A program made the position numbers and the translations under genes. Below the pieces are notes generated by a model. The model was not told where the DNA came from. It saw nothing but the letters and a program-made list of their open reading frames with translations, and ran no database searches. Shown here piece by piece: positions 6,926-62,800 of a stretch of DNA of 64,000 bases. The stretch's first letter is position 1. Every line of letters starts with the position of its first letter. The stretch is from an uncultured bacterium (GTDB taxonomy: Bacteria; Electryoneota; AABM5-125-24; Hatepunaeales; Hatepunaeaceae), in the NCBI GenBank assembly GCA_964627035.1, contig CAZVKN010000002.1, positions 11,206 to 75,205 on the forward strand, read 5' to 3'.

Positions 6926-6928
6926 TGA

Positions 6929-7013
6929 ATCCCGCTGTCAGCCCGCCGTGGCTGACAGCATAACTTAAGTAACAATAACAAGTTGGCTGTCAGGTGCGGC
7001 GACCTGACAGCGG
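6929..7013. repeat. Double-hairpin repeat element, copy 1 (CCGCTGTCAGCCCGCCGTGGCTGACAGC ... GCTGTCAGGTGCGGCGACCTGACAGCGG)
   Basis: Near-identical copies at 38752-38835 and 45988-46070. Each has two perfect palindromic stems. Confidence 0.85.
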
Positions 7014-7080
7014 ATAATTCGCATATAGCACGCAACCTTAAATGAATGTAGAATAACGGTACTGCGGAGAAAGTATTAAA

Positions 7081-10945: not shown

Positions 10946-11692
10946 ATGCATCGAGAACCTTACATACTGATTGACCGGGCATCAAATCCTCAGGAAGGAA
11001 CTCTTACTGTTTCGGGAGATGAAGCACATCATCTGCATAAGGTTATGCGAGCGAAGGAGGGAGACACTTTCATCGCGTTTGACGGGATCGGTCACGGGTG
11101 GCGTGCGAAAGTCTCCGCAATTGACAAGGAAAGTATTACTGCTCGGATAGTTGAGCCGATTGCTGAGAAATTTTCGATCTCTAAGTTTGACACCACCGTC
11201 GCAGTTGGAATTATCAAGGGCAGCCGGATGGATTGGGCTGTTGAGAAAGCCGCCGAGCTTGGCGCTGTCCGTTTCATTCCGACTCTCTCGCATTTCAGCG
11301 TTGTCACCCCCAAAGAAAACAGAATAAAACGGTGGCAGACGATTGCACTGTCGGCGGCAAAACAATCTCACAGATTCAGGCTGATGCAAGTTGAACATGT
11401 GCAGTCTGTTGATTCGATAATTCGGAATAATGCAATCAGCATAAATAAACTGTGCGCATTGGATGTCGGCAGCGGAACAGAGTCATTGATAACAGTGTGG
11501 AGCGACTGCGTCACGGAGAAGCAGGTACGTCATCTGTTGCTCTTCATCGGACCGGAGGGGGGATTCTCAGCCGAAGAGCTTGCACTGTTCAAGCGTCACA
11601 GCATCCCGTCAGTAACCATAGGTCTATATCCGCTCCGCACCGAGACGGCAGTGGCGGTGGTTCTCGGTACACTCGCCAACTTTTCATTGTGA
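10946..11692 (+). CDS. rsmE: 16S rRNA (uracil1498-N3)-methyltransferase RsmE
   Basis: PUA-like N-terminus and SPOUT domain (IKGSRMDWAVEKAAELGA, LFIGPEGGFSAEELA, YPLRTETA). Start taken at ATG 10946, immediately after the upstream stop. Confidence 0.85.
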   Translation: MHREPYILIDRASNPQEGTLTVSGDEAHHLHKVMRAKEGDTFIAFDGIGHGWRAKVSAIDKESITARIVEPIAEKFSISKFDTTVAVGIIKGSRMDWAVEKAAELGAVRFIPTLSHFSVVTPKENRIKRWQTIALSAAKQSHRFRLMQVEHVQSVDSIIRNNAISINKLCALDVGSGTESLITVWSDCVTEKQVRHLLLFIGPEGGFSAEELALFKRHSIPSVTIGLYPLRTETAVAVVLGTLANFSL

Positions 11693-24191: not shown

Positions 24192-24273
24192 TGCTTTGGA
24201 ATTACTCCGTTTTCAGACTATCTGAGAGTGTAAATTCTCCGCTGTCAGGTTGCCGTTCCAGACAACCAAAAGG

Positions 24274-28813: not shown

Positions 28814-28849
28814 TTGAGATGTCCTGTGACATTAAATTGTATTTAACAA

Positions 28850-28960
28850 GTGATAAAGTAAGAAAGTGGGAAAGGAAGCAGGGAAGAATTTGATCAATGC
28901 TTCATCTTTCTTGTTTTTTACCTTCTCACCTTCTCACTTTCTTACTTACTTACTTACTTT
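28850..28960. repeat. Inverted-repeat element (AAAGTAAGAAAGTGGGAAAGGAAG ... CTTCTCACCTTCTCACTTTCTTACTTACTTACTT)
   Basis: Same GTAAGAAAGTGAGAAAG family as 677-754 and 49130-49160. Sits between two minus-strand kinase genes. Confidence 0.6.
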
Positions 28961-38657: not shown

Positions 38658-38751
38658 ATGACACCGTAGTCGGGGTTGAGGACAACCCCGACTACAGTTT
38701 TCACACTCCTAACGACGTCGAGTTTGGAACAACACCGGGTTTTTTGATGTA

Positions 38752-38835
38752 TCCGCTGTCAACCCGTTGTGGTTGACAGCACAACTTTTGTAATATCAAT
38801 ATGATAGCTGTCAGGTGCGGCGACCTGACAGCGGG
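38752..38835. repeat. Double-hairpin repeat element, copy 2
   Basis: CCGCTGTCAACCCGTTGTGGTTGACAGC ... GCTGTCAGGTGCGGCGACCTGACAGCGG. Confidence 0.85.
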
Positions 38836-38861
38836 TTCTTCATATTCAGTAGTTTATCGTC

Positions 38862-45955: not shown

Positions 45956-45987
45956 TCACTTCAGAGTCTGTCCGATAATGCGGGTAA

Positions 45988-46070
45988 CCGCTGTCAACCC
46001 GCTGCGGTTGACAGCCTAACTTATGGAATATCAATTAGGTGACTGTCAGGTGCGGCGACCTGACAGCGGA
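45988..46070. repeat. Double-hairpin repeat element, copy 3
   Basis: CCGCTGTCAACCCGCTGCGGTTGACAGC ... CTGTCAGGTGCGGCGACCTGACAGCGG. Confidence 0.85.
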
Positions 46071-46089
46071 CTATTGGTATTACAGGACA

Positions 46090-46145
46090 GACTCTTCTGC
46101 GTGTCTTCCTCGCACACAGGCTGAAGCCTGAACTCTGAACACAGA
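46090..46145. repeat. About 45-bp direct repeat (copy A) of GCGTGT..CACAGGCTGAAGCCTGAACTCTGAACACA; partner at 62745-62800
   Basis: The 29-bp core is 27/29 identical between the two copies, in the same orientation, about 16.7 kb apart. Confidence 0.7.
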
Positions 46146-46320: not shown

Positions 46321-49089
46321 ATGTTACGAGCAACTATCTATGTACTAATCGCACTTTTTCTGACCATCGGCTGCCAGGATGACGACAACCCCGTCGCGCC
46401 GCCTGTGCCGAAGTATGACATTCAAATCACCAACCTGCCGACATCAATCACCTCCCCCGAAGGCGTTAGCCATGAAGTGATCTTTCAGGTCACTGTCATC
46501 AACAACGCAACCAACGAAGTGGTCGAAGGAGCAGCCGTCGCTCTTGCCGTTCCACTCGGTCAGGGATCAATCACACCGCAAACCATGCCCACCGATGTGC
46601 ACGGAACCGTCGAAGCGATGTACAGTTTCGACATGCCGTCCGGTAAATCAACCACACCTATATTTATCACGGCGGAAAAGCAGAGCACTATCGCTATCAT
46701 TGTCCTTGACGGCACGACACGACCTGTTGAGCTGCTGCTGACTGCGGATGAGACGCTGCTGTTTCCTGAAGAGAATGAATCTGTCGAAGTCAACCTGACC
46801 GCTGCGGTGACTGACGAGCGCGGAATGGGGATTGCCGGAGTGAAGCTTTTCTTCGAGCTGATTGAAACGGAAGAAGACAGCACTTACGGAGCGTTAACCC
46901 CGATATCAACGACTGATAAAGAAGGTCTGGCTCAATCCACCTTCCGTTCGATGGGCGGACACGGAACCATACACATCCGCTGTTCGGTGGATGAAGGAGA
47001 AGACTTTCTCGATGTCAAGGATGAGGTGGCGATCAGGATCGTTGAACCCTTGCAGGGAGGAATACTATTTCTCAATGCAAGTGAGAACTACATCTATGCC
47101 GATAACGGTGTAACAGATGCCATTGTTCGCGCGGTATTAAAGGACAGGTCGAATCAAGCCATTGAAGGGGCAGAGATTATCTTCTCATCCAATAACAACG
47201 GCGCGATTAGCTCACCGCATACCACCGATTCACTGGGAATCGCACTCTCAGTATTCACCGACATCGGTATCCCTTCGATGAACGCACTCGGAGAAAGGGA
47301 ACCGTGCACGGTAACAGCCTACTATTACCGCCTTGGTTTGGCAGAATCCATCGAAATTGATATCCGTCCACAGGAACATGTGGACAACATCGTGCTGGCA
47401 GCCGGAAAAGCTACGATGCATGCCGGCAGTCGTGATACAACATGGGTCAGAGCTACGTGTTTCCTTGATCGTTCTCGAACTCAGTTAGCCCCTGAGGGTA
47501 CGATGGTGTACTTCGAGCAGGATAACTGGATGGGGTCATTCACGCAATCACAAGTTCCGGTAGGACGCACCGGTACTGCACAAACCGCATATGTTGCAGG
47601 TACTCAAGTTGGGCAAGCCATAATTAGAGCTATTGTAGTGAATGAAGATTGGGAGTATGTTCACAGCAATGAAGTAATCATTGACCTGATCCCCGGTGCG
47701 CCTGCAAGCATTTATGTTCAATCCAACCCGTCGGTTCTGCGTATCGGTGAAGCGGGTGAGCAGTCAATGATTCTCGCTTCTGTCGTTGATTCATTCGGCA
47801 ACCCGGTCAGGGACGGTTCGGTTCTCGTTCAGTTCTCAACAACTCTCGGAACGGTTGATCCACCGTCAACTCCGACAGATTCGGGTCATGCAATCGCATT
47901 CCTTCGTCCTGGTGTCGAGGCAGGAGTAGCTATTGTCCGTGCAACCGTTTTGGGATTAGAACCTGCTGAAACGGCGGTGTCATTCATCGCCGGAGGAGGG
48001 AGTTCTATTAATCTCGGTGTTGATGATTTACAGATTCCAATTGGTGGATTCACCAGAATCCATGCTACTGTCCGCGATGCTAACGGTAACCTCATTGAAG
48101 TACCGACTAAGGTTGTTATTGTTCTGCTGACAAATGATGTGCCACCGGAAGCTGGCAACATAAATGGGAATGATCCATTCTACTGCGATACCGTTTACAC
48201 CTCAAATGGAATAGCAACATTTACATTCAATGCAGGAACCCGAATAGGACCACAACTGATCCGAATATATACTCTTGATGAGGATGGAAATCCAACCGGA
48301 GTTCGTGCAACCATTAGTACTCTGATGGTCGTCGGCGGACCTCCGGCTATTCTTTCACTTGGCTGGGAAAATGACGTTCGTGATGCCGGAGGAGGAAGCT
48401 GGATACTTCCGGTATCAGCACATATAACGGATCAATACCGTAACCCCGCGAGGGATGAAATCGTCGTAAATTTCAGAGTTGATCCGGTCGGTTCTATCGA
48501 AAGTCATGCATTTACAAACGGTGGACGGGCTGTTGTTGATCTGACATATCACAGCGAGCATGTCTTTGAGGAAGTTACAGTCACCGCTTATCTTCTGACC
48601 GAGGACGACTCACTCGGACAGACGTTGACCTTCCAGTTGCCTTTCCAAGGTGGCGAGCTTGAGCTGCATGTTGATCCGAACAACTGGATGTTTGACAGAG
48701 ACGAGCCGGATAACATTTGTGATATCCGGGTGTGGGCGATCCTGCATGATGGACACGGAGTTTTGATCAACAATGCACCGATACTGTTCACATCTATTCG
48801 AGGTAAGTTTTGGTATGACAATCGCGCCGGAGATCAGGTGGACTTTGAGATCTTTGAACCTCGACCTGTCAGACGACACACCGGACCTGTCAATGACGGT
48901 GGCAATCCCAACGAGCGACAAAATGACGATGATCCGGACGGTCATGCGGTAGTATGGCTGAGAGGAATAATGGACGACTTCTTCCTCGATCCGTTCAGTA
49001 TGGAGGTGACAGTCCAGATCGAGGCGAATGTAGAGGGTTACGACGATGTATTCGCCAATCCTGCATTTGTGGTGATGACGAGGCATTGA
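46321..49089 (+). CDS. Large lipoprotein with repeated bacterial Ig-like (Big) domains
   Basis: Lipobox MLRATIYVLIALFLTIGC. Repeated about 90-aa beta-rich segments (GxxTVTA..., AIVRATV). Confidence 0.55.
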   Translation: MLRATIYVLIALFLTIGCQDDDNPVAPPVPKYDIQITNLPTSITSPEGVSHEVIFQVTVINNATNEVVEGAAVALAVPLGQGSITPQTMPTDVHGTVEAMYSFDMPSGKSTTPIFITAEKQSTIAIIVLDGTTRPVELLLTADETLLFPEENESVEVNLTAAVTDERGMGIAGVKLFFELIETEEDSTYGALTPISTTDKEGLAQSTFRSMGGHGTIHIRCSVDEGEDFLDVKDEVAIRIVEPLQGGILFLNASENYIYADNGVTDAIVRAVLKDRSNQAIEGAEIIFSSNNNGAISSPHTTDSLGIALSVFTDIGIPSMNALGEREPCTVTAYYYRLGLAESIEIDIRPQEHVDNIVLAAGKATMHAGSRDTTWVRATCFLDRSRTQLAPEGTMVYFEQDNWMGSFTQSQVPVGRTGTAQTAYVAGTQVGQAIIRAIVVNEDWEYVHSNEVIIDLIPGAPASIYVQSNPSVLRIGEAGEQSMILASVVDSFGNPVRDGSVLVQFSTTLGTVDPPSTPTDSGHAIAFLRPGVEAGVAIVRATVLGLEPAETAVSFIAGGGSSINLGVDDLQIPIGGFTRIHATVRDANGNLIEVPTKVVIVLLTNDVPPEAGNINGNDPFYCDTVYTSNGIATFTFNAGTRIGPQLIRIYTLDEDGNPTGVRATISTLMVVGGPPAILSLGWENDVRDAGGGSWILPVSAHITDQYRNPARDEIVVNFRVDPVGSIESHAFTNGGRAVVDLTYHSEHVFEEVTVTAYLLTEDDSLGQTLTFQLPFQGGELELHVDPNNWMFDRDEPDNICDIRVWAILHDGHGVLINNAPILFTSIRGKFWYDNRAGDQVDFEIFEPRPVRRHTGPVNDGGNPNERQNDDDPDGHAVVWLRGIMDDFFLDPFSMEVTVQIEANVEGYDDVFANPAFVVMTRH

Positions 49090-49125
49090 GATTCACAACG
49101 GATTGAACGGATGAAGCAGATTATT
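49090..49125 (+). repeat. Post-stop-codon motif GATTCACAACGGATTGAACGGATGAAGCAGATTA
   Basis: Starts at the nucleotide after the TGA stop. The same motif, in the sense orientation, follows the stops of genes ending at 51428, 55071, 55858 and 57493. Confidence 0.8.
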
Positions 49126-51778: not shown

Positions 51779-52318
51779 ATGTTAAACAAAACTATTCTAT
51801 TCCAAGTAAGAAGAGTCTTGGTTGTGGTCAGCATAGTTGCAGCCGGATTTGTTCTGTCAGTACAGAAAGCTGCGGGTTGCTGGGGACCTATTGCAATTGA
51901 GAAATTGATCAGTGAGAGCTCCGTTATAGTAGTTGGAGAAGTAACCAAGATTATTAATTCTCCAAATACTCCATCACCGGAAAATGACGCAATGGTAACG
52001 GGGGAGAAGCGACTAATCCAAAGACCTACAATGCAAGACACTGCATATATTACAGTGTCAAGAGTATTCAAAAACACATTACCGGACACGAAAATCGGAA
52101 TCGGTGACCGAATTCCATTGACGGTAATTGCTTCAGACAGCGCATTTTGGACTTCTATAATAATTTTCGATCACCCAAAGCCAATAGGAACGTTCGGTAT
52201 TTGGATTATTGAGTTCAAAAACAACAAATACTATGCTTTTCATCCTACGACTTTGCAGCCATTAGCAAATGAGGAAGAAATCGTGAATATCATTAACAAT
52301 CAGAAAAATAATCCATAA
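51779..52318 (+). CDS. Hypothetical secreted protein
   Basis: N-terminal hydrophobic segment VLVVVSIVAAGFVLSV. No known domain. Confidence 0.4.
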   Translation: MLNKTILFQVRRVLVVVSIVAAGFVLSVQKAAGCWGPIAIEKLISESSVIVVGEVTKIINSPNTPSPENDAMVTGEKRLIQRPTMQDTAYITVSRVFKNTLPDTKIGIGDRIPLTVIASDSAFWTSIIIFDHPKPIGTFGIWIIEFKNNKYYAFHPTTLQPLANEEEIVNIINNQKNNP

Positions 52319-52355
52319 CATCCTTCTTCCTTTCCCACGTTCTAACATTCTAACT

Positions 52356-52790
52356 TCAGATCAACTCACGTAGCCAGTCCATATCTATATTCGGGCAGGT
52401 GCGGTTGTCGCCGGACAGCTCATAGTGACCGATCAGCTCTGCATCGGGATACTCTTTCCTCAATCGCCGGATCAGATTGGTCACAGTCTCAAATTGATGC
52501 ATCGTGAACTGCTTTTTTCCAATGAGACAGATGCCGATGCTGCTGCTGTTGTATCCTTTCGCATGTGCACCGATTACTTCCATCGGTCTCCCGATCTGCG
52601 CAGTTCCATCCAACCAGAATTGAGGTTGCTTTAATTTGAACACTTCCTCTGTCGGATATCCGTTCATAATCACATAATGATACCCGATCCGGTCGTACCC
52701 ACACTTGCGATGCCACTCGTCGATCAACGCAACGTTCCCGTAAGGTGAGTCGCTGCAATGAAGTATAATTCGATTAATATTTCTCGTCAT
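52356..52790 (-). CDS. N-acetylmuramoyl-L-alanine amidase (Amidase_2/PGRP, T7-lysozyme-like endolysin)
   Basis: ILHCSDSP...GYHYVI...IGAHAKGYNSSSIGICLIG...CPN zinc-ligand pattern. Start taken at MTRNINR (52790). Confidence 0.75.
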   Translation of the reverse strand: MTRNINRIILHCSDSPYGNVALIDEWHRKCGYDRIGYHYVIMNGYPTEEVFKLKQPQFWLDGTAQIGRPMEVIGAHAKGYNSSSIGICLIGKKQFTMHQFETVTNLIRRLRKEYPDAELIGHYELSGDNRTCPNIDMDWLRELI

Positions 52791-52801
52791 GTCGTTGTCC
52801 T

Positions 52802-53065
52802 CTATTGAATAAACAGCTTGAACAGAGCAACCGCGATACCGACCGCAAGGCTCGCCATGACACCCCAAAGCCTGTATTCACGCCGTTCTATCTTGACTCT
52901 GAATGCGCTGTTTCTATCCACCTTGTGAGTCAATCCATCGTGACCGTTGCCGTTGAGCATCCTGTAGATGTTTTTAACATCATCTTTCACCTCTTTGACA
53001 TTATCGTGGATCATCTGTATTAGTTCGTTATTCATGGTTTGTTGATTTGTGTGATTTTCAATCAA
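52802..53065 (-). CDS. Lysis-associated small membrane protein (holin-like, single C-terminal TM)
   Basis: 87 aa. C-terminal LWGVMASLAVGIAVALFKLFI. Immediately upstream of the endolysin. Confidence 0.35.
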   Translation of the reverse strand: MIENHTNQQTMNNELIQMIHDNVKEVKDDVKNIYRMLNGNGHDGLTHKVDRNSAFRVKIERREYRLWGVMASLAVGIAVALFKLFIQ

Positions 53066-53154
53066 GTCATTGCGAATCCACGTAGTGGGTGAAGCAATCT
53101 CTTCGTATTATGTAAGAGATTGCTTCGTCAATCCTTTCCTCGCAATGACAGAAG

Positions 53155-53290
53155 TCCATGCAGAGCGGACAGAAATGAGTTCTTTGATTTATTACTGATT
53201 TCGTTATTCCCGTGCCGTGTGGCATTGGCTACTTGTTGCCAATGTTTCTTTATTAATGAAACACGGGCAATGAATAGCCCGTGCCACCCA
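53155..53290. repeat. Modular repeat plus conserved two-hairpin element A (CATTGGC-TACTTGTT-GCCAATG; CACGGGC-AATGAATA-GCCCGTG)
   Basis: The second copy at 54985-55050 has compensatory stem changes (CATGGGC/GCCCATG) and a conserved TACTTGTT loop. Confidence 0.7.
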
Positions 53291-53293
53291 AAG

Positions 53294-53593
53294 TCACTCC
53301 CCTTCAGACAAAAACCGATACCCATTCACCTCAAGGAATTCATCAAAATCCATCCCACTCCCCGTCGAGCAAGCAATGCAGTACAATCTATCCGAAAGAT
53401 CGTACTCGCCCCAGATTGCGCCGGCGTAAGCTACAACTGTTGTCGTGTCTGCGAGTGTGCATAGTTGAACTGTCGCCACGTCAGCAGGAGCTTCATGCAC
53501 TTCATTGTTCGAATAGATAAAAAACGTCTGCGCATCCTCGGTCAAACCTATTAGTGGCAACATTAAGATCAATATTGTAACTACATATCTCAT
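53294..53593 (-). CDS. Small secreted hypothetical protein
   Basis: Signal peptide MRYVVTILILMLPLIGL. Confidence 0.4.
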   Translation of the reverse strand: MRYVVTILILMLPLIGLTEDAQTFFIYSNNEVHEAPADVATVQLCTLADTTTVVAYAGAIWGEYDLSDRLYCIACSTGSGMDFDEFLEVNGYRFLSEGE

Positions 53594-54405
53594 TGGTATA
53601 ACCTGTATTTTCGGTTCAGATAGCTGCGAATCCGCTTCACATCAGCAGAAGACAGCTTGCTTCCGTCACAAAGGATGTATTCAGCGAGATAACCACCGAT
53701 GTAGTTCGTCCAACTGATTGAGCCGAAGTAATCCATCTTCCACGATTTTCCACTATAACCTGTCGCAACTCCGTCAACAGTCCCGTTCCAAAATCGGTTG
53801 AGGTTGTCGCCTTCAGCCTGAAACTCCAGAAGACCATAAGAAGTAGTCGGTTGAGTAACACCTGTCATCGTTCTGTACACACCTCCGTCGCTTCTCATGT
53901 CCAGCGATCCGGCTCCGGTTTGGCGTATCATCGTGTCGTTCACATCTCCATCCGCAAAAATGAATGCACGCTCATAGGTCGTGCTGGTGAACAGGATCAC
54001 TATGAAGTGATGAGGTGACGACAACGTAACAGCACCGTCTGAAAGTTGATAAGTATCATCAACCTCATCAAACTGCAGAGCAGGACGACCGTTGATTTGG
54101 TTGATGTTGTACAGAGCACGTTTGGAGGCGCTCGGCGGCTGCCCGTCACTTCCGTTGCCGGATCTATCTGTCCACAGCGAACATTGACCGGACGCATCGG
54201 TATAAACTCCGCTTGACGCATCCCACCAGATCTGAACCACATCGCTTCCAAGTTTTGCAGGGGTCCATTCGAGCGCTGTCTCTGTCCCCAAATCCCGTTG
54301 GATTCGACCCCACGAACTATCTCGTCCCCACTTTCCCGAACCTGACAGGACGATCAGGAAGATAAATAGTGTTACTATCTTTACTGTTCGCATATCAACT
54401 TCCAC
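53590..54405 (-). CDS. Secreted hypothetical protein (phage-region)
   Basis: Signal peptide MRTVKIVTLFIFLIVLSG. Beta-rich. Confidence 0.4.
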   Translation of the reverse strand: MEVDMRTVKIVTLFIFLIVLSGSGKWGRDSSWGRIQRDLGTETALEWTPAKLGSDVVQIWWDASSGVYTDASGQCSLWTDRSGNGSDGQPPSASKRALYNINQINGRPALQFDEVDDTYQLSDGAVTLSSPHHFIVILFTSTTYERAFIFADGDVNDTMIRQTGAGSLDMRSDGGVYRTMTGVTQPTTSYGLLEFQAEGDNLNRFWNGTVDGVATGYSGKSWKMDYFGSISWTNYIGGYLAEYILCDGSKLSSADVKRIRSYLNRKYRLYQ

Positions 54406-54911
54406 TCAACTTCAAACGTGTCATCAACAGTGGTTGCGAAAACCATGCGCACATACCCGCCCACAAATAGCCGCAAGGGATACAGGTAGTAACGGTTGGT
54501 GTCTTCCAACGGTTCAAATCGCCAGTTGCCGTACTGGTAATGCGTGAACGTTCCGGAGTCTATGAAGACATTGGATGAGTCCGCATTCCAGAACTCGGTT
54601 GCGGTGGTGTCGTATATCTGCTCAAAGTATGCGTCACTCAACTGTGCTGTATCGCCTTGAACAGAGGTCAACAGCAATGCCAGCGTGAACGACTCCGGAT
54701 TGTACTGACGGATATTATGGTTGTCTCCATCTGATGCGTTCGGCGAATATCCGACCTGCAGCCAAGATGTGGTGTATCCACCTGATGTTCCTTTGACCGT
54801 GTCAACTCCGGTCATGATTTTGGGCATGGTGGTCAGCAGACCGGTAACATCCTGCCCGAATGCCGGTATGACTGCGACAAATATCAGCAATGCTATGATT
54901 AGTTGTTTCAT
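54381..54911 (-). CDS. Secreted hypothetical protein (phage-region)
   Basis: Signal peptide MKQLIIALLIFVAVIPAFG. Confidence 0.4.
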   Translation of the reverse strand: MKQLIIALLIFVAVIPAFGQDVTGLLTTMPKIMTGVDTVKGTSGGYTTSWLQVGYSPNASDGDNHNIRQYNPESFTLALLLTSVQGDTAQLSDAYFEQIYDTTATEFWNADSSNVFIDSGTFTHYQYGNWRFEPLEDTNRYYLYPLRLFVGGYVRMVFATTVDDTFEVEWKLICEQ

Positions 54912-54940
54912 TGATATATCTCCTTGAATAGTTGTATTCC

Positions 54941-55085
54941 GTCATTCCCGCTCAGGCGGGAATCCAGTTATATCGTGTGGCACGGGTTACTTGTTACCTG
55001 TGTATCATTACTTAAAGAAACATGGGCAACGAGTAGCCCATGCCACACGGATTCCATCTGTTTAATTCGTTCAATCCGTTGTGAA
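54941..55085. repeat. GTCATTCCC-N8-GGGAATCCAG, then two-hairpin element B, then post-stop motif (minus sense)
   Basis: GTCATTCCCGCTCAGGCGGGAATCCAG. GTGTGGCACGGGTTACTTGTTACCTGTG...CATGGGCAACGAGTAGCCCATGCCACAC. ...TTCAATCCGTTGTGAATTC overlaps the stop of the 55071 gene. Confidence 0.75.
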
Positions 55086-55769
55086 TTCCCTCTCCTCAGG
55101 AATCCCGCGATAGACAATCCCTCCAAAACGGAAGCGAGGCATATTGTCCTTTTGGTGAATCATCGCTTCAGACAGCTCGAATCCGGTGCCGGGTTGAGCA
55201 CCTCTGTACACAAACGATCCTTCCGTCACCCGGAGCACATCATCGTAATGGAAGTAGCACAGTTGTCCGTCATACTCTCGTCCCGGTATATGTTCACAAC
55301 GACGAATGTCATTGTCACAGATAACACAGGTCGGTTTGCGGAAAGTGAATCCCAATGAAGCTTCGCTGTAGATGCCTCCATCAATTGAAACCCGCAGGTC
55401 TTCCGCATTGGAATGATTCTTCATCCAGTAGAATTTCGGCACTATGTATGTGATGTCGCTGTCAGTGTCATGCTCAAGCTCACCACCGAAGAACCGAGCA
55501 ATTCCAAGCGTGTCCTTTCGATGACCGATCAAAGCCGGAGCACCCTGAACCAGTTCAAGCAGCTTGCTCATGTCTTCGGAGCGGAATCGTCCGAAACCCG
55601 CATCCACAGCATCTCCTGCGAGCCTGCACCGACGAACATAGACGTCCTTTGCCGTGACTTTCATCAGCGGTGGATTTGGCAGGCTGTTGATAGCCTCAAT
55701 ATCCGATTTCAGCACCTGAGTCTGTGCAGGCAGCAACACGCCTGAAAGTTCTCTGTATATCCAGTCCAT
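55071..55769 (-). CDS. Hypothetical phage-region protein (Cys-rich C-terminus)
   Basis: 232 aa. CVICDNDIRRCEH...CYFHYDD. No confident family. Confidence 0.35.
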   Translation of the reverse strand: MDWIYRELSGVLLPAQTQVLKSDIEAINSLPNPPLMKVTAKDVYVRRCRLAGDAVDAGFGRFRSEDMSKLLELVQGAPALIGHRKDTLGIARFFGGELEHDTDSDITYIVPKFYWMKNHSNAEDLRVSIDGGIYSEASLGFTFRKPTCVICDNDIRRCEHIPGREYDGQLCYFHYDDVLRVTEGSFVYRGAQPGTGFELSEAMIHQKDNMPRFRFGGIVYRGIPEEREFTTD

Positions 55770-55790
55770 CTGTTTGTCTCCTTTTAAATT

Positions 55791-55857
55791 GTCATTCCTG
55801 CGAAGGCAGGAATCCAGTCTTAAATCCGTTTAATCCGTTCAATTCGTTGTGAATCTC
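55791..55857. repeat. GTCATTCCTGCGAAGGCAGGAATCCAG plus post-stop motif (minus sense)
   Basis: Directly abuts the stop of the 55858 gene. Confidence 0.75.
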
Positions 55858-57165
55858 TTACCCCGTCGCTCTCTGATAACCCATCTCCCTCGCTCCCTCA
55901 TCTTTCGAGATGTAGCCGTTCTTTACTTTCATATCTATGTTCTGTAGTTCGATACTGTGCGTCTTCGCCCTATCCAACCGGAACGGGTCGGGATGCGAAT
56001 CGAAACTGTGCTTAACTGATGCTTTGACTCCTCGCAGTTGCAGCTCAAGATTGCTGATCCAATTAACCAAATCAGCTCCCGACTTCTGATGCGATGCCAC
56101 AATCTGCATTAACAGGTCGTATTGCGACCGCATCCAATTACGCGCATTCTTGTGAGATCTGCCGAGCACCCAAGGATACAACCGCAGCCCGGTGATGACA
56201 TCCTCGATGACCTGCTCGCGGTTTAGCCTCCATGCAGCCTGATGTCCGGTCTGACCGACAACCGTCACTTCAACATCACTCCAGGTGAATATGTTGTCGT
56301 CCGGTTCAAGGAACTGAAATTCTTTGACCACATCATTGAAATACTGATTCGCTCGTGAAGCATATCCGTTATCTTCTTCCCAGTCAAATTGAGTCGGACG
56401 GGAAACCTTGACTTGAAGTCTGGGGGTGCCCGAATTGTGACTCGAACGCGCCATATCCTCAAGCATCATCTGTTCAACCTCAGTGACAAACGGGATGCAG
56501 GCAAGAGGTTCAACACCGGACGGATTGGACAGATCCGATCCTATCACACCATAAAAGAACAGGTCAGGATCGAATTTCTCCTTGTTGTCATCTTCATCGG
56601 TGACATAAGGAATCCAACCGCGCTTGCTATGCTCCCATGAAACCGTGAAGGGATCAATGTAGCGGAAATGATCCACAGACTTGCCGTCCGCACTCAGTAC
56701 CGCTTCTCCCGCAAATCGCCCGGTTGTGAACAGCTCGAGGAAATAGCCTTCCGTCAATTTAACCAATCCCGAACCGCGTCCATACGGCATTTCGAGTATC
56801 CGACGGTCAAGATCGTTGAGCAGTTTAACGGCTTGCTGCCGTTCCTCGCTGTTGCCCTCAACCGTTTGCGTCATCTTAGTTGCGCACAGCCTGACCCACG
56901 CCCAGATACCGGATGAAAGAATCGGGATATTATCACGCATCCATCGGTAGAAATCACCTTGATTGCTACCGCTATAGTAGAACGGACGCGAACCGTAGCT
57001 TGTCATGGTTCGTCTTAATGCCCTCGGCTGCCAATTCCTTCGCGGTGTGTATGGGGTTGCCTCAGTCGGTGCGACCGTCGGTCCCGATGCGAGGTTCGTT
57101 CCTCCACGCACTTTGATTAGACGATCAAGTACTGCACCTCGTTTACGTTTTTTCCAAAGCTGCAT
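55858..57165 (-). CDS. Putative phage portal protein
   Basis: 435 aa, immediately downstream of the terminase large subunit. Size and position fit a portal. No unambiguous motif. Confidence 0.4.
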   Translation of the reverse strand: MQLWKKRKRGAVLDRLIKVRGGTNLASGPTVAPTEATPYTPRRNWQPRALRRTMTSYGSRPFYYSGSNQGDFYRWMRDNIPILSSGIWAWVRLCATKMTQTVEGNSEERQQAVKLLNDLDRRILEMPYGRGSGLVKLTEGYFLELFTTGRFAGEAVLSADGKSVDHFRYIDPFTVSWEHSKRGWIPYVTDEDDNKEKFDPDLFFYGVIGSDLSNPSGVEPLACIPFVTEVEQMMLEDMARSSHNSGTPRLQVKVSRPTQFDWEEDNGYASRANQYFNDVVKEFQFLEPDDNIFTWSDVEVTVVGQTGHQAAWRLNREQVIEDVITGLRLYPWVLGRSHKNARNWMRSQYDLLMQIVASHQKSGADLVNWISNLELQLRGVKASVKHSFDSHPDPFRLDRAKTHSIELQNIDMKVKNGYISKDEGAREMGYQRATG

Positions 57166-57204
57166 TTATGTCTCCTTGATTTTTTGTTGGTGTAATTATC
57201 CAAT

Positions 57205-57470
57205 GGGGAGCAGCGACATTCCTGTCGCTGTAGCGGGAACAGGAATGAGTTCTTTGATTTATCATCTATTTTGTCATTCTGGTGAAAGCCAGAATCCAGT
57301 AAATAATTGGAATCACTGGATTCCCGCCTGCGCGGGAATGACGTGAATGGGCAAATTTATGAATATTTCAAAGGTCTCATTCTTGTCCATGTTTTGCCGA
57401 CAGGAATGTCGGCACTCCCCGATACATTTGTTTAATCAGTTCAATCCGTTGTGAATCCGGCACGGGAATC
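57205..57470. repeat. Large composite of modular repeats (GACATTCCTGTC palindromes x2, AATGAGTTCTTTGATTTAT, two ATTCYS-N8-GGAAT motifs, post-stop motif)
   Basis: All modules are shared with the elements at 51429, 53155 and 54941. Confidence 0.8.
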
Positions 57471-57492
57471 ACAAAATCACCTAATCACAAAA

Positions 57493-58812
57493 TCACCTCG
57501 GCAATCCCACCACCTGCGCCTTCGACCAGCCGCCTCGTTTCAGTTCAATCAGATTGATTATCAGATACCTGAGCGCATCAACAGCGTGGTCATGTTCACC
57601 GTCCTTGAGTGGTTTATCCTTGCCGCTGTCCCAACGATAGTGTCGGATATGATGCAGGCTTTTGGGTGCTGTCGGTGAAAATCGCAGATTTACACGTCCT
57701 GCAGCATCTTTCAACTGAGATTTCAACAGATCAATGCCGGTCATGATCTCAGATTTGCGATATCTGATCTTGAATTCGCGCTGTTTCAACCGCTCAACTG
57801 CTGATATACCGCTGTCCGTCATCGCAGCACCAGCAGGATCACATCCACTCCACTCTACGTCATCCTCCCTGATTCCGTGCTTCCTGTCAACATTTCTGAT
57901 AGCTACGATCATCTCATCGACAGTCGCATCGTAACCTTCCCATTCGTCGAATAGTGTCAGCGATCCGTCCGGTGACCGATGCACCCACACCACATATGGA
58001 TGGCGGTAGCCGAAATCTATCCCGCGGTAACTCTTGCCCGAATCACGCCTCCACTTGAATGGAATTGACAGAAGGTGCAATTGCGGATCATACTCATCGA
58101 ACACACGATTTGACAGAACATCAAAATCAATCTCATACTCCTGGCGCCAACGGTTTTCCGATAGTCCACGCTTCGCTTCTATCTCCCATGCTTCATCTCT
58201 TTCAGGATGCTCTTTCCAATGGAGCGTCTGTTTCCCAAAGCCGTTATCGTCGTTGAACAGGCTGTAAAAGATATTGTCCGTTCCGTTTGGTGTGGATACA
58301 CCGATAAAACTTCCACCGGAATCAATCGCAGGCTTCAACGCTGTCCAGATTCCTTCCGAGTACGGTGTGAAAGCCATCTCATCCCAGAAAACACAAGTTG
58401 GGCTGTGCATTCGAGGTGCTGATTCGGTAGCAGGCAGCGCAATAATTCTCGTTTGGGACGGAAAAACCACCTCTTCGCTCTTTACTTTTATATCCGTGTG
58501 ATCCGGTAGATTTTTAATCATTATTTTGAGCCGTTTTATCAATTCTCCACTGTCACGCTTTCCTTTTGACAGCAGCAGATATATACCCGGATCATCGTAC
58601 AGCGCACGGAACAGGATATATGCTGACACCGTCCAGGTTGCCATCATTTGGCGCGACTTGGCGACCATTAAAATACGGTGTTCCGCAAGAACATTTACCA
58701 ACTCCCGTGTAAACTGATAATCGGGAAACGGCTTAACACCCCCAACAGCATCCAAAGTGCAGACGCTTGATCTTACCCACTTCCAAACTGTCTCAGCGTC
58801 AATCATAAGCAT
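57493..58812 (-). CDS. Phage terminase large subunit
   Basis: ATPase: deviant Walker A VAKSRQMMAT and Walker B CVFWDEMAF. Nuclease: GIDFGY...DGEHDHAVDALRYLI C-terminal motif. Confidence 0.7.
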   Translation of the reverse strand: MLMIDAETVWKWVRSSVCTLDAVGGVKPFPDYQFTRELVNVLAEHRILMVAKSRQMMATWTVSAYILFRALYDDPGIYLLLSKGKRDSGELIKRLKIMIKNLPDHTDIKVKSEEVVFPSQTRIIALPATESAPRMHSPTCVFWDEMAFTPYSEGIWTALKPAIDSGGSFIGVSTPNGTDNIFYSLFNDDNGFGKQTLHWKEHPERDEAWEIEAKRGLSENRWRQEYEIDFDVLSNRVFDEYDPQLHLLSIPFKWRRDSGKSYRGIDFGYRHPYVVWVHRSPDGSLTLFDEWEGYDATVDEMIVAIRNVDRKHGIREDDVEWSGCDPAGAAMTDSGISAVERLKQREFKIRYRKSEIMTGIDLLKSQLKDAAGRVNLRFSPTAPKSLHHIRHYRWDSGKDKPLKDGEHDHAVDALRYLIINLIELKRGGWSKAQVVGLPR

Positions 58813-58865
58813 TCACAAAAACTTCGTGTTCTTCGCGCCCTTCGTGGTGATATCTCTCTTATTTC

Positions 58866-59711
58866 TTAGAACCATTCCCAGCTTTGATTCGCTTTTTTAG
58901 CACCGGAGTTCATCGCCGGGATCTTCATAAACGGTCTTAATGTGTGCCATGCGGCGGTCTGATATGTCAGAGCCAACTCGCGCCATGCGCGCGCACGCCC
59001 TTCAGCAGACGTTCCGCCGTCAGAAACTGCCCGTGAAGCCAAAGCCCTGCACAGAACAGAGAGTGTCAGCTCAGTAGCCCCGGTGATCAAGCCTTGATCG
59101 CTCGATGAGTCGTTATAGTCATCCTTCAGACGCGCCAGAATTTTATCCTCTGCCTGAGTAATTGCCTGCGAAATCAAGTCATCCACACCGGACGCTGCTG
59201 AAAGCTGATAGTCAACCAATACTGTGGTGTCCGCTTCCAATGATCCGGCTACTTTGACAGTTAGTTCTCCCGTCGCATAGTCAATGGTGTAATCAATATC
59301 TTTGGTCATCACCTCATATCGCTGATAGTACAGTTGCACTGCAGAGCCGTTTGATATTGCCCCACCATCAATTCGACGAATTTTGCCATCTGTCCAGTTG
59401 ATCGCATAGTCAACACCTTCGAGATAGACAGTTTGTAATCCGTCATCCTCTGCCACTACTGCTTGGTTCGGCACGAGGTTGTCATAGGTTAGCTGCACCC
59501 AGGTCTCATCATTAAGTGTCACACCTGACTGTTCTGTCGGCTCAACCGACATTAGTCTCTTAACCGATTCGCTCGATGTAACTATACCACGATGCGGGAG
59601 CTGCGCATTACCGTCATTGTCAAATTGGATTCGAACATCATTAAACTCGGTCAAAACCTGATCCAGATCTATCAGATGTTTCCTGACGCTTGTTGTATCT
59701 GTCCACGACAT
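58866..59711 (-). CDS. Hypothetical phage-region protein
   Basis: 281 aa. No family recognised. Confidence 0.35.
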   Translation of the reverse strand: MSWTDTTSVRKHLIDLDQVLTEFNDVRIQFDNDGNAQLPHRGIVTSSESVKRLMSVEPTEQSGVTLNDETWVQLTYDNLVPNQAVVAEDDGLQTVYLEGVDYAINWTDGKIRRIDGGAISNGSAVQLYYQRYEVMTKDIDYTIDYATGELTVKVAGSLEADTTVLVDYQLSAASGVDDLISQAITQAEDKILARLKDDYNDSSSDQGLITGATELTLSVLCRALASRAVSDGGTSAEGRARAWRELALTYQTAAWHTLRPFMKIPAMNSGAKKANQSWEWF

Positions 59712-59724
59712 TATCTACTCCTCC

Positions 59725-60090
59725 TTAAATCAGTTGTATATGTACGGTTGCATACAGACTCGAATTTTGAGATAGTCCTGCTGCGACAAGAGTTGAGTTA
59801 ACTCCGTTTATCCGTACATAAACGTCGAAATTACCACCGTTCACTTGTGCATAGAGTGAGATTCTGTCTCCCTGTGCTGCAGCTATATTACCGCTGCCGG
59901 ACAGAATTCCCGATCCGTCCCAGCAATCAATCCGGTATATTCTGGCATTCTGAGGTAACGGGAAACCGTCCCCTCCTTGTCCACCTGCTCCTTTGAGATA
60001 GGTGGATGATGTGGTAACTGCATCCGAGAAGCAAAGCAGCATCTTCTGTCGTTTTGACAGCAGGTAGCTGAGTGTTCGGTTTAGTGACAT
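59725..60090 (-). CDS. Hypothetical phage-region protein
   Basis: 121 aa. Gly-rich. Confidence 0.3.
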   Translation of the reverse strand: MSLNRTLSYLLSKRQKMLLCFSDAVTTSSTYLKGAGGQGGDGFPLPQNARIYRIDCWDGSGILSGSGNIAAAQGDRISLYAQVNGGNFDVYVRINGVNSTLVAAGLSQNSSLYATVHIQLI

Positions 60091-60176
60091 GTTTGATCCT
60101 TACGTATCTGTTGTTGCTAACTAATTTATAATAATTCAATTGCACTTTAAACTTCTTCATTTTATATTCATTGCAT

Positions 60177-60259
60177 GCGGAGGGTAAGAAGCTGGGCTTC
60201 GCGTTGCTTGATACACAACTGGACTGAAAAGTTCGGGGTTCGATTCCCCTGCCCTCCGC
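60177..60259 (+). tRNA. Atypical tRNA-like element (83 nt): 7-8 bp acceptor stem, GGGG-TTCGATT-CCCC T-arm, possible GAU anticodon loop
   Basis: GCGGAGG(G)...CGGGGTTCGATTCCCCTG-CCCTCCGC. Stem 27-31/39-43 with loop TTGATAC. The D-arm and variable region are non-canonical. Confidence 0.4.
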
Positions 60260-60640
60260 TTGTTCCGAAGAAAAGTCAAATAATTCCTTTTTTTACTTGA
60301 CAACGGTATTATTTATTATTACGTTATAATCGTATCAAGCAACACCAAGAGGCACCAGCCTTTTGGAATCGAGCTGTCCGTGAGGTTTCAAATGATCACG
60401 GATTATCGTGCGGGACGGAATTTAACCGTCCCGCACTTTTTTTGCCGTTCAGGATCCCGATGCTTCTCTATGCATTCAATCCCGATCCTTCACAGCATCT
60501 GTTCTTCAGGGGAAGCTCAGAGGCTTATTAAAATTTTTCCTCTATATGTCCCCTGAAGAACAGTTTCCTGCGTCAACCCACCCCGGTCAACACAACTCTT
60601 TAACTGCGGTGTCAACACGCCGCGGTTGACACATTTATGC

Positions 60641-61693
60641 TTAGTAATCCGACAGCAACGCAGCGTCATCCACCATGATGGTGTAAACCGACTCCTTCGA
60701 CACCACCGCCTGCTCCAGCTTCTGATTGATCACCTTGTCAACATCAATCATCAGCGGTTGCGTGACCGATTCACGCACCGCAAACCGACTGTCGAGCCCG
60801 ATGACTTTGGTAGCGGTCGCATTCGGAGCAATCACCAGTCTTGCATTCACCGGCAGGAACGAATGGTAGTTACCAGTCTTGGTAAACAGCTCATTTTCCC
60901 GCCACGCCTGAGCATCCTGGAACTGTGACAGATTAATGATGGTCTCGACATCATTCTTGGTGGCGATGATGTGTGTCATCCGTGCCGGAACGTCAAAAGA
61001 CATTGCCAGATGCACCAGATCACTATACGCAAACGTCCCGGCGTTGCCGTCGAATACATCGCTCGCTCCATCCGACGTGCCGTCACCGTCGAGCAGGATG
61101 TTATACATCTCGTCAATCTCGTCATAAGCCATCTGTGCACCGATCCACCACAGGAACACCCGAAATTCGGTCAGCTTCTGATTGCGGACGATCCGATATG
61201 AGAAGTCAAACTCACGACCTCGGTCAATGATGTTCGCCTCCTTGTCCCGATACAGCAACTCAACACGCGGATATGCCGATCCTGCGCTCTTCTTCGCCAG
61301 TGACTCTTTTGCCTTGGTCGTCTTGACATAGATCGGACGAACGGTCGGACCGCTTTCCAGCGAAACGGATGCTACCAGATCTGTCGGATTCTGCACCATT
61401 TTGTAACCACGCTGGATTTCGCGCAGCACGTACTCCGGCAGCAGTATCAATCCACCACCGACGAAAAACTGCTCCATGCTGATGGACTTTGATCCTTCCG
61501 CGAGAATCCCGTTCAGCATGAGCTGTCTTTCAAACGCATCGAGTCTGCTGTCCGATTCGCTTGGATCAATCTGCTCCAGCAATTCACTGAACGTCAGATT
61601 CTGCTCCTGTGCTTCAGCATACAGTGACAGATTCCCTGCTCGGGAATGCTGCACAATCAGCTCGCCCAGTTTATTTGCTTCACTCATAATCAT
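60641..61693 (-). CDS. Putative phage major capsid-like protein
   Basis: 350 aa, in the size range of HK97-fold capsid proteins. No signal peptide. Followed by a palindromic terminator-like repeat. Confidence 0.35.
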   Translation of the reverse strand: MIMSEANKLGELIVQHSRAGNLSLYAEAQEQNLTFSELLEQIDPSESDSRLDAFERQLMLNGILAEGSKSISMEQFFVGGGLILLPEYVLREIQRGYKMVQNPTDLVASVSLESGPTVRPIYVKTTKAKESLAKKSAGSAYPRVELLYRDKEANIIDRGREFDFSYRIVRNQKLTEFRVFLWWIGAQMAYDEIDEMYNILLDGDGTSDGASDVFDGNAGTFAYSDLVHLAMSFDVPARMTHIIATKNDVETIINLSQFQDAQAWRENELFTKTGNYHSFLPVNARLVIAPNATATKVIGLDSRFAVRESVTQPLMIDVDKVINQKLEQAVVSKESVYTIMVDDAALLSDY

Positions 61694-61743
61694 TCCTTAT
61701 TGTTTAGTTGTTTACTTGTCCTCGCGCAAAGTCACCTTCTTTG

Positions 61744-61795
61744 GGAGGACGGACATTCCTGTCCGTCCCGCAGCGACAGGAATGTCGCTGCTCCT
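61744..61795. repeat. Tandem GACATTCCTGTC-core palindromic hairpins
   Basis: GGAGGACGGACATTCCTGTCCGTCC-CGCAG-CGACAGGAATGTCGCTGCTCC. Confidence 0.8.
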
Positions 61796-61841
61796 CAACT
61801 ATAAATACTTTGCGCCTTAGCGTTCTTTGCGTGAGTTCATC

Positions 61842-62282
61842 TTATCCCAGCCACACGTCACATGTAGTGTCAGTCGTGTTGACCGCAATTACCTGCCCGC
61901 GCATCAGATGGCCACCTGCTGCGATATCAACGTCTGCAGCAGCCTGCCTCACTTTACCTGCACCGTCAACCTCGACCATCTGATTGATGACCGGAGTGGT
62001 TGCGGCATATTTGAACCTCGCTACACCGCGAGCCTGAACCGCACACAGCGACGGAACCGTTGTCCCGTCCTGTAGCTGCTGTGACACCCATACAACCTTG
62101 CCGAACAGCTTGTCACCTGCGGCTCCCATCCCGATTTCGTTATCATCGGAGATAACACATGCCGAAAGGTTATTGTCCAGATCATCCTGGATGAAGTCTC
62201 TGTCTGCAGTTGTGTCAACACTGAATGTCAGGAACGGTGTCCCGCCGATTCCACTGTTGTCAATTTGAAACGGACTACTCAT
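61842..62282 (-). CDS. Hypothetical phage-region protein
   Basis: 146 aa. Ala/Gly-rich. Confidence 0.35.
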   Translation of the reverse strand: MSSPFQIDNSGIGGTPFLTFSVDTTADRDFIQDDLDNNLSACVISDDNEIGMGAAGDKLFGKVVWVSQQLQDGTTVPSLCAVQARGVARFKYAATTPVINQMVEVDGAGKVRQAAADVDIAAGGHLMRGQVIAVNTTDTTCDVWLG

Positions 62283-62306
62283 CTATTCTTCCTCCTTACT
62301 GTTTGG

Positions 62307-62558
62307 TCACCGTCCGCAGCGGAAGGTGTCTGCACCTTCATCCGGAACGGTCAATTTGTCTGCTTCGAGTTTACCGCCCCATGACGGACGATTAAGTGAT
62401 TTTGATACCCCCATTAATCGGCTGTTGTCAATCAGATTATCGCCGACCTTACGAACGGTAACGTCCTTATCAGGTTCTTCCTTTGTGCTGCTCTCCATCA
62501 ATTGATCTACATCAATCTCCAATGGATTGCAGTCGAACATTAGATTATGTTTAACCAT
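62307..62558 (-). CDS. Hypothetical phage-region protein
   Basis: 83 aa. Confidence 0.3.
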   Translation of the reverse strand: MVKHNLMFDCNPLEIDVDQLMESSTKEEPDKDVTVRKVGDNLIDNSRLMGVSKSLNRPSWGGKLEADKLTVPDEGADTFRCGR

Positions 62559-62744
62559 ATTTTCTCCAATTGCACTGTTTGATTGTCAATGTACGGAATT
62601 AATTAATTAAAGTCAAGCATATTGCCGTATAATTGCAAAGATAATGCAAATAATTTGTGATTATCAAACAGCATCCAATTGTAATCATGGTAAAGGCAAT
62701 ATTATTATATATTATCCCCATACTTGGGACAGTTTAGAGTTCAC

Positions 62745-62800
62745 GCTTCAGCGTGTTTGCTTCGGGCACAGCCTGAAACCTGAACTCTGAACACATCGTC
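62745..62800. repeat. About 45-bp direct repeat (copy B) GCGTGTTTGCTTCGGGCACAGCCTGAAACCTGAACTCTGAACACA
   Basis: Matches 46090-46145. Confidence 0.7.

Follow-up and report, generated by a model that had tools for sequence, protein, structure and literature searches.

Only a handful of independent events are known in which a phage was domesticated into a gene transfer agent (GTA), and they gave rise to RcGTA, BaGTA, VSH-1, Dd1 and VTA. RcGTA, from the α-proteobacterium Rhodobacter capsulatus, is encoded by a phage-derived structural cluster without integrase or replication genes, which includes an HK97-type capsid, a portal, a protease, the large terminase TerL, an adaptor and a full siphovirus-like tail, and its particles are released by lysis. 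GTAs of the RcGTA type occupy a fixed chromosomal locus, are vertically inherited and evolve under purifying selection (PMC10883770). In this work we analyzed a stretch of 64,000 nucleotides (the window) from an uncultured bacterium of the phylum Electryoneota (GenBank assembly GCA_964627035.1, contig CAZVKN010000002.1, positions 11,206 to 75,205), in which a compact module of phage-type genes occupies positions 52356-62558. We consider it reasonably probable that this module is what remains of an HK97-type tailed phage that was domesticated and became fixed in the chromosome, i.e. a vertically inherited, GTA-like operon for head formation, packaging and lysis in Calditrichota-like bacteria of the FCB (Fibrobacterota-Chlorobiota-Bacteroidota) group. 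A literature search for a GTA or a prophage of Calditrichota or Electryoneota returned nothing relevant, and the element itself was not found described in the literature that could be searched.

The module has in common with RcGTA the absence of integrase and replication genes, the same repertoire of head, packaging and adaptor functions, and a lytic release that is here predicted from the genes alone; it is also fixed in the chromosome, vertically inherited and under purifying selection. In contrast, it has no tail genes, its capsid gene lies 5' of the terminase gene, its lysis genes are within the cluster, and it embeds genes for secreted proteins together with an antisense unit formed by a tRNA-like gene and a small RNA. 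No sequence relationship with RcGTA goes beyond the shared phage fold families, so the module would represent an independent domestication in the FCB group.

Two other kinds of elements are close to the module in organization. Capsid-forming phage-inducible chromosomal islands (cf-PICIs) and other phage satellites are likewise compact (~10-15 kb) and tail-less, and carry their own capsid, portal, protease, terminase and connector genes. However, these elements are mobile and have an integrase, attachment (att) sites, replication genes and a repressor, none of which was found in the module, which co-diverged with its flanks; a further difference is that the module encodes a holin and an endolysin of its own. 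PBSX-like defective prophages and tailocins are chromosomal, phage-derived producers of particles that lyse the producer and do not propagate, a description that the module may share, but they are tail-centred or fully tailed and restricted to narrow taxa, whereas the module is head-only and spans deep lineages.

The module encodes a predicted phage head, a packaging motor and a lysis cassette

The module consists of 13 co-oriented open reading frames (ORFs) on the minus strand, with a span of 10.2 kb. Gene identities were assigned by PHROGs and Pfam searches of the ORF proteins and, for two unassigned proteins, by structure models together with an alignment of 40 sequences each. The major capsid protein (MCP, 60641-61693) belongs to an HK97-type family (phrog_3922, 4e-47) and has a borderline match to the Pfam family Phage_capsid_4 (7e-6, 26.9 bits, cut-off 27 bits); its ratio of non-synonymous to synonymous substitution rates (dN/dS) in the comparison with the sister species is 0.075. 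TerL (57493-58812), with ATPase and nuclease domains, was identified by phrog_2 (5e-36) and Terminase_6N/6C, and its motifs KSRQ, WDE, STPNG and DHxxDALRY are invariant in 25 loci. The portal protein (55858-57165) matches phrog_3753 (1.7e-32) and shows a dN/dS of 0.045.

The protein g232 (55071-55769) is predicted to be the prohead (capsid maturation) protease on account of its structure model and invariant residues. The AlphaFold model, with a predicted local distance difference test (pLDDT) value of 84, has as its best Foldseek match in the PDB the T4 prohead protease gp21 (5jbl), with a probability of 1.0 and a template modelling score (TM-score) of 0.58 when normalised by target length. 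Residues H83, S138, C148, C151, C158 and H160 are invariant in 40 sequences, with a Cys3His motif towards the C-terminus, and a homologue of g232 lies between the portal and the MCP in the nearest phage contigs. Structure comparison also pointed to g281 (58866-59711), which has an N-terminal beta/Ig-like domain and a modelled fold that resembles portal adaptors, as a probable head-to-tail (portal) adaptor. Judged by sequence for MCP, portal and TerL and by fold for the putative protease, these four proteins together correspond to a head module of the HK97 type (Duplodnaviria).

Two small core proteins accompany these genes. The most conserved gene of the module, g146 (61842-62282), matches phrog_4588 'virion structural protein' (2.5e-7), with a mean column identity of 74% in 24 loci and a dN/dS of 0.038; its place beside the MCP suggests that it is probably a capsid decoration or cement protein. 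The gene g121 (59725-60090) is present in 57 of the 61 loci of the family (dN/dS 0.064), and searches of its product against family and PDB libraries gave nothing significant, the best being a lipoyl-domain-like match with an E-value of 0.006; it possibly acts in head completion or decoration. Profile searches of g281, g121, g146 and g232 against PDB sequences yielded nothing significant, and a Pfam search of the unassigned proteins at relaxed thresholds returned the capsid family as the sole match.

The distal part of the operon carries secreted proteins and the lysis genes. By their N-terminal sequences, which are signal-peptide-like, g176 (54381-54911, dN/dS 0.078) and g99 (53294-53593, dN/dS 0.096) are presumed to be secreted; the former, without a family match in PHROGs or Pfam, is restricted to the clade of the window, within which g99 is kept as cluster c24. 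Between them, the protein g271 (53590-54393, dN/dS 0.096), which likewise begins with a signal-peptide-like segment and would be secreted or anchored, matches phrog_10356 'virion structural protein' (4.5e-13); the protein that relatives have at this position (c29) matches Pfam Laminin_G_3 at 3e-17, and g271 looks like a ConA/LamG lectin. A holin-like protein of 87 aa with one C-terminal membrane helix (52802-53065; phrog_689 holin, a weak match of 1.1e-3; dN/dS 0.038) is encoded directly 5' of an Amidase_2 endolysin, an N-acetylmuramoyl-L-alanine amidase (52356-52790; PF01510, 6e-13; phrog_822, 8e-34; dN/dS 0.048) that has no signal peptide and in which the His/His/Cys zinc-ligand positions are legible.

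The first gene of the operon encodes the small protein g83 (62307-62558), which has no family match and is weakly conserved, with a dN/dS of 0.40 against the sister species. Of the small genes that relatives have at this position, cluster c30 shares the C-terminal motif FRCGR, and for clusters c9 and c13 no similarity to g83 could be demonstrated. A consensus scan gave a weak candidate for a sigma-70-like promoter, TTGACT-17-TACATT, ~30 nt 5' of g83 (62588-62616, minus strand).

An earlier note on this DNA, made from the sequence, had proposed the Amidase_2 endolysin, a holin-like protein, secreted proteins, a terminase, a portal and a capsid, and these calls are borne out, by PHROGs and Pfam annotation for the phage-type proteins, weakly so for the holin (1e-3), and by the N-terminal sequences for the secreted proteins.

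Host genes bound the module

On its left side, the module is preceded by a plus strand gene of 179 aa that ends at 52318 and by genes for cargo proteins of the type IX secretion system (T9SS), and on its right side it is followed by a plus strand gene for an M1-like peptidase that starts at 63028 and encodes 741 aa in the full contig. The rest of the window is ordinary chromosome, with genes for GlnA (glutamine synthetase), Maf, UbiA, RsmE, an Omp85-family protein, SbcCD-like proteins, histidine kinases, two-component systems and T9SS cargo proteins, and the GC content of the module equals that of these surroundings. Searches with PHROGs and Pfam found no integrase, recombinase or replication gene among the 13 module genes, in agreement with the earlier observation that integrase, tail and replication genes are not recognisable in it. 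The search for att sites that had been proposed was also carried out: the longest direct repeat shared by the boundary zones is an 11-mer, as compared with a mean of 9.7 and a maximum of 14 in shuffled sequences, i.e. at chance level, and no att site was identified. Because host genes bound the module and its edges share no repeat beyond chance, we take it as a self-contained 10.2 kb unit rather than one exposed end of a longer prophage.

The module has diverged together with the host chromosome

In the closest relative, the metagenome contig L061, the module has the same host genes as neighbours as in the window: one flank encodes an OPT transporter, a 213-aa protein and the M1-like peptidase, and the opposite flank encodes a 164-aa protein and a T9SS beta-helix protein. 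Nucleotide identity between both sequences amounts to 74-78% within the module and to 77-81% within those flanking genes that align well, and the number of synonymous substitutions per site (dS) is 0.9-2.4 in module and flanks alike. Twelve of the 13 module genes have a dN/dS of 0.04-0.10, and the flanking genes have values of 0.03-0.10. An apparent excess of conservation in the module (M1-like peptidase 48% versus MCP 89%) was rejected as an artefact of an N-terminal fragment of the peptidase, which at full length is ~79% identical. The upstream flank is also common to the window and L063, and other clades keep conserved flanks of their own; for example, the gene of cluster c37 (TrpF-like by eye) is 83-84% identical in L042, L046 and L047, and among these loci and L049, in which other flanks are shared, MCP identity is 91-94%. 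The module has diverged together with the host chromosome under strong purifying selection. Given this co-divergence, the selection and the intact genes, we regard the module as a functional element maintained by the host, rather than as a decaying prophage or a mobile satellite.

A family with a permuted gene order

The distribution of the module was analyzed in a scan with one genome per GTDB species, its 13 proteins were mapped onto all loci, and the integrity of the core genes was assessed in 61 non-redundant loci. Fifty-six species-representative genomes, labelled Calditrichota, Electryoneota, LCP-89 or KSB1, carry one locus each on contigs of up to 4.5 Mb, with an MCP 49-77% identical to that of the window; two metagenome contigs are closer, L061 (MCP 89%) and L063 (MCP 85%). 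A set of 5.8 billion proteins contains 409 relatives of the MCP; among the matches listed, identities range from 58 to 100%, the labels are Calditrichaeota, LCP-89 or Electryonea, and many come from contigs 0.4-4.5 Mb in length. The core order g146-MCP-g121-g281-TerL-portal-g232 is conserved nearly everywhere and the core genes are full-length in ~95% of cases, whereas the distal part (g176, g271 or a larger Laminin_G_3 protein, g99, the small membrane protein and the amidase) is found only in the clade of the window. The position of the capsid gene before the terminase gene, described earlier as atypical, is real and, far from being peculiar to it, is conserved family-wide.

Relatives among viruses are distant and few. 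In a set of 50,697 phage records, the MCP has matches in only five contigs, all from uncultured gut phages and with at most 30% identity; TerL is 23-26% identical to T5-like terminases; and among the 2.9 million viral contigs of IMG/VR one contig of 8.4 kb matches. When proteins are clustered at 50% identity, a single representative stands for the whole family and the next full-length relatives are at most 42% identical, as compared with at least 49% inside the Calditrichota-type family. The family is almost absent from virus collections and is not a circulating virus. The nearest bona fide phages, the uncultured human-gut phages MT835508.1 and MT835952.1, have a homologous MCP (~30%), protease, portal and TerL; they differ in that these genes follow the canonical order TerL-portal-protease-MCP, and one of them is 46.7 kb long. 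Read from these sequences, the permuted order is a shared derived character of the family, and, being derived, it argues for a single origin.

Several variations were observed among the loci. A divergent XRE (HTH_3) regulator is found upstream of the module in deeper lineages (L012, L014, L015, L018, L020, L027, L029, L031, L033, L039, L044, L055, L057 and L058), in several loci accompanied by an ImmA/IrrE (Peptidase_M78) protease; the pair is absent beside the copy of the window. In a subgroup of the LCP-89 type (L013, L015, L019, L023, L025, L029, L030 and L055), g146 has moved to just past g121, giving the order MCP-g121-g146...g281. Host genes intrude between module genes, often on the opposite strand, in L020, L026, L029, L037, L038, L045, L046 and L048, and leave the module genes intact; by eye, the C-terminal sequences of clusters c10, c15 and c17 make these intruders appear to be secreted proteins with a T9SS C-terminal domain, and the MCP-g121 and TerL-portal gaps look like hot spots of insertion. 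L016, L019, L024, L028, L036-L038 and L046-L048 are labelled Alphaproteobacteria, Puniceispirillum or Zixibacteria at NCBI; the apparent T9SS-type cargo genes beside the module suggest that the labels of L036-L038, L046 and L048 are wrong.

Interpretation and alternative explanations

The suggestion that this is a GTA-like packaging module gives the best fit: the evolutionary signature matches that of GTAs, while the tail of a GTA is lacking and the function is a prediction from sequence. If the module is a domesticated GTA-like operon, the steps from expression onward, which we infer, could be as follows. The operon would be switched on in part of the population, in the deeper lineages probably under control of the XRE repressor and the ImmA/IrrE protease encoded next to it. 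Procapsids would be built and matured by MCP, portal and the g232 protease and decorated by g146, and TerL would pump DNA into them. The fact that no small terminase is recognisable is suggestive of a packaging that is probably not sequence-specific and takes host DNA. The g281 adaptor, perhaps with g121, would close the portal, and the holin-like protein and the amidase would then lyse the producer and free the particles; release by lysis of the producer cell, as annotated, would fit a GTA. DNA delivery without a tail may depend on distant tail genes, on tails taken from phages in the manner of cf-PICIs or on uptake by the recipient through competence.

Several observations weigh against the reading of the module as a GTA-like operon. 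To our knowledge, all described GTAs have tails, and no tail, tape-measure, baseplate or fibre gene was found within the cluster or elsewhere in the 64 kb window, nor is one conserved beside any of the 61 loci. No small terminase was recognised in the module. The module is known from its genes, the packaging of host DNA is conjectural, and the presumed secretion of g176, g271 and g99 fits poorly with the assembly of virions in the cytoplasm. Core genes carry nonsense codons in three of the 61 loci (TAG in TerL of L061, TGA in the MCP of L015 and TAA in the MCP of L051), which may represent sporadic loss or inactivation of the element or errors of metagenome-assembled genomes (MAGs); the stop codon in L061 TerL (9971-9973) is also present in L062. 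Finally, deep vertical inheritance across phyla is inferred from synteny and clade-specific flanks, and the NCBI labels of several MAGs are unreliable.

The earlier note had left the choice between a GTA-like module, a satellite and a degraded prophage. A satellite or PICI-like nature is disfavoured by the fixed position and the co-divergence with flanks, with integrase, att and replication functions not found. A related explanation, which we hold to be unlikely, is a head module of the cf-PICI kind that hijacks tails: its DNA-filled heads would be infectious only with the tails of a superinfecting or resident tailed phage, and in this way the module would interfere with that phage, transduce host DNA or do both. 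The cluster encodes only a head and an adaptor, g281 having an adaptor-like fold, no tail genes lie nearby, its own lysis cassette and regulation could respond to infection, and the XRE and ImmA pair of the deep lineages is a typical stress- or induction-sensing switch, all of which would suit tail hijacking; yet excision functions, like the other mobility functions, were not found, the module is immobile whereas PICIs and cf-PICIs described so far are islands that move, neither a small terminase nor a cos or pac site could be recognised, and no helper phage is known. Slightly less likely still is that the capsid was domesticated for some purpose besides gene transfer, such as a controlled lysis that releases protected extracellular DNA for use in biofilms or as a nutrient, a decoy for phages or an interference with their packaging, or a DNA compartment. 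In line with such a function, the shell proteins (MCP, and g146 with 74%) are more conserved than TerL or the portal, which is unusual for phages, and secreted lectin-like proteins are co-conserved with the lysis cassette in the clade of the window, again with no tail; but a portal, an adaptor and a TerL with invariant ATPase and nuclease motifs argue for genuine packaging and sealing of DNA, a hallmark of transducing particles, and the module lacks cargo or enzyme genes such as encapsulin systems have.

The persistence of a cryptic, functionless prophage remnant that decays and has been kept by chance is very improbable, even though the cluster lacks most functions of a phage and is cluttered by repeats and insertions, and nonsense codons occur in core genes of the three loci mentioned above. 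The dN/dS of 0.04-0.10 for 12 of 13 genes, which is as in the flanks, is obtained at saturated dS, the TerL motifs are invariant, and the seven-gene core is intact in dozens of species with MCP identities of 49-94%, a divergence over which a remnant under no selection would not have survived; that module and flanks have diverged equally also argues against a recent horizontal spread. The degraded prophage of the earlier note is contradicted by the same ratios and by the integrity of the core in ~95% of the 61 loci.

Within the GTA-like reading, we advance tentatively, and as a possibility that falls short of an even chance, that the module is an independently domesticated system of sealed, DNA-filled capsids without a dedicated tail, ancestral to a large group of lineages of the FCB superphylum (Calditrichota, Electryoneota, LCP-89 and KSB1), that it would be the first GTA-like system to consist of a head only, and that antisense RNAs might contribute to its control in those members of the family that have them. 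If true, this would widen the range of virus domestication to a tail-less architecture shared by dozens of uncultured FCB-group species, and would suggest that genes are exchanged by a route so far unrecognised, or that there is another capsid-based function, in uncultured bacteria of sediment and soil. Virus-detection pipelines will flag such loci as prophages, as the one in IMG/VR illustrates, and they are better handled as host genes.

Antisense RNAs in the MCP-g121 gap

The gap between MCP and g121 holds two units on the plus strand, i.e. antisense to the operon. One is a non-canonical tRNA-like gene (60177-60261), called by ARAGORN as a tRNA-Ile (60179-60259) with the anticodon GAU. It has a 9-bp acceptor stem that includes a U-G pair, a 4-bp T stem with a canonical GGTTCGATTCC T-loop, and a long variable arm capped in the three full copies by a tetraloop GAAA, GCAA or UUCG. 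Homologues in the same place and orientation were found in L063 (11377-11457, minus strand, anticodon GAU) and L053 (11421-11502, minus strand, anticodon CAC), and L005 has only a 3' fragment (~11353-11378). In the fit of the three copies to a cloverleaf, 95% of the cells are paired, as compared with at most 57% when the partners are slid, and seven pairs show compensatory changes; as far as sequence comparison can tell, this is a genuine cloverleaf RNA. It is not a canonical tRNA, since the Rfam tRNA model (RF00005) gave no match at the gathering or the E-value threshold. The tRNA-like element of the earlier note is real, with the correction that it lies on the strand opposite to the genes. 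The score with tRNA-Sec is 28.8 bits, below the cut-off of 47, and the geometry deviates from the canonical 7/5 acceptor/T stem. At the gathering threshold Rfam found no match in the whole window, in which neither of the two tRNAs called by ARAGORN is canonical.

Allo-tRNAs have 8/4 or 9/3 acceptor/T stems (Mukai et al. 2017, PMC5389517). Like these and tRNA-Sec-like molecules (PMC5389517), the tRNA-like gene has a lengthened acceptor stem, a shortened T stem and a long variable arm; as in allo-tRNAs, its anticodon is variable (GAU, CAC) and it is associated with an accessory element. It differs from them in that it reads as 9/4 with one unpaired base, so that in the three sequences acceptor and T stem add up to 13 with one base unpaired, an approximate agreement with the 12-bp branch of allo-tRNAs. 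A link with the recoding of stop codons was rejected, given that three genomes of relatives each have a different in-frame stop, namely TAG, TGA and TAA; two further apparent in-frame stops in relatives are alignment artefacts.

Immediately downstream on the plus strand lies an antisense small-RNA unit (60296-60443) that is conserved in relatives and consists of a TTGACA box, a structured RNA of ~110 nt and an intrinsic terminator (60408-60436, followed by T7) that is the strongest of the region. Copies are present in L063 (11186-11349), L053 (11265-11400) and L005 (11198-11335), all on the minus strand. The promoter reads TTGACA-N17-TATATT in relatives, whereas the spacer in the window has 22 nt, which may weaken this copy. 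The consensus fold comprises three hairpins with seven covarying pairs, and the sole Rfam signal is L20_leader, at 29 bits and below threshold. Both RNAs are patchy in distribution, the closest relative, L061, having neither. Operon transcripts that run from MCP into g121 would be antisense to both; the tRNA-like RNA and the small RNA are candidate regulators, and a control of the operon by them is possible.

Intergenic repeats

Most gaps of the module had been said to hold repeats, which was confirmed for seven of its nine intergenic gaps, each with at least one repeat module. The module makes up 16% of the window and contains four of the seven window copies of the CATTCCTGTC...GACAGGAATG hairpin units, three of the five GTCATTCC..GGAATC units and three of the four ATTCACAACGGATTGAAC units. 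A hairpin pair CATTCCTGTC...GACAGGAATG of the host type lies in the g146-MCP gap (61743-61794), other copies being at 24273, 40004 and 51481, outside the module. The gap at 57204-57457 is packed with two CATTCCTGTC hairpin pairs, one GTCATTCC..GGAATC and one ATTCACAACGGATTGAAC, and just 3' of the MCP stop codon there are two GTCAAC...GTTGAC hairpins (60569-60633; family D4, inverted repeat I22), one of which scored as terminator-like. Short blastn matches indicate that the module of the sister species carries repeats likewise. The gap repeats are host-wide hairpin elements, and in this respect the module behaves as resident host DNA.

The ATTCACAACGGATTGAAC sites (49088-49122 on the plus strand; 55055-55086, 55823-55857 and 57425-57457 on the minus strand) are located at or shortly past the stop codons of the 922-aa gene, g232, portal and TerL, in the orientation of the gene, and may represent a 3'-end or mRNA-processing element rather than random insertions. 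A direct repeat of 53 nt (83% identity) at 46091-46143 and 62743-62795 lies ~180-285 nt 5' of two plus strand genes, those of the 922-aa Big_1/invasin-like protein and the M1-like peptidase, and may be a shared promoter or regulatory element; the copy at 62743 was considered as an att site and rejected, given that the copy at 46091 is likewise upstream of a plus strand gene, as expected of an intergenic repeat. A double-hairpin repeat of 98 nt has three copies in the window (6928-7025, 38749-38846 and 45984-46081), and the tRNA-Asp (anticodon atc) that ARAGORN calls at 38762-38838 is almost certainly false, as it overlaps one of them and has no Rfam support. Purine-rich AAGTAAG/GAAAG repeats occur at three intergenic sites (667-703, 28848-28955 and 52322-52356), the last of which coincides with the left edge of the module and separates the 179-aa gene from the stop codon of the amidase.

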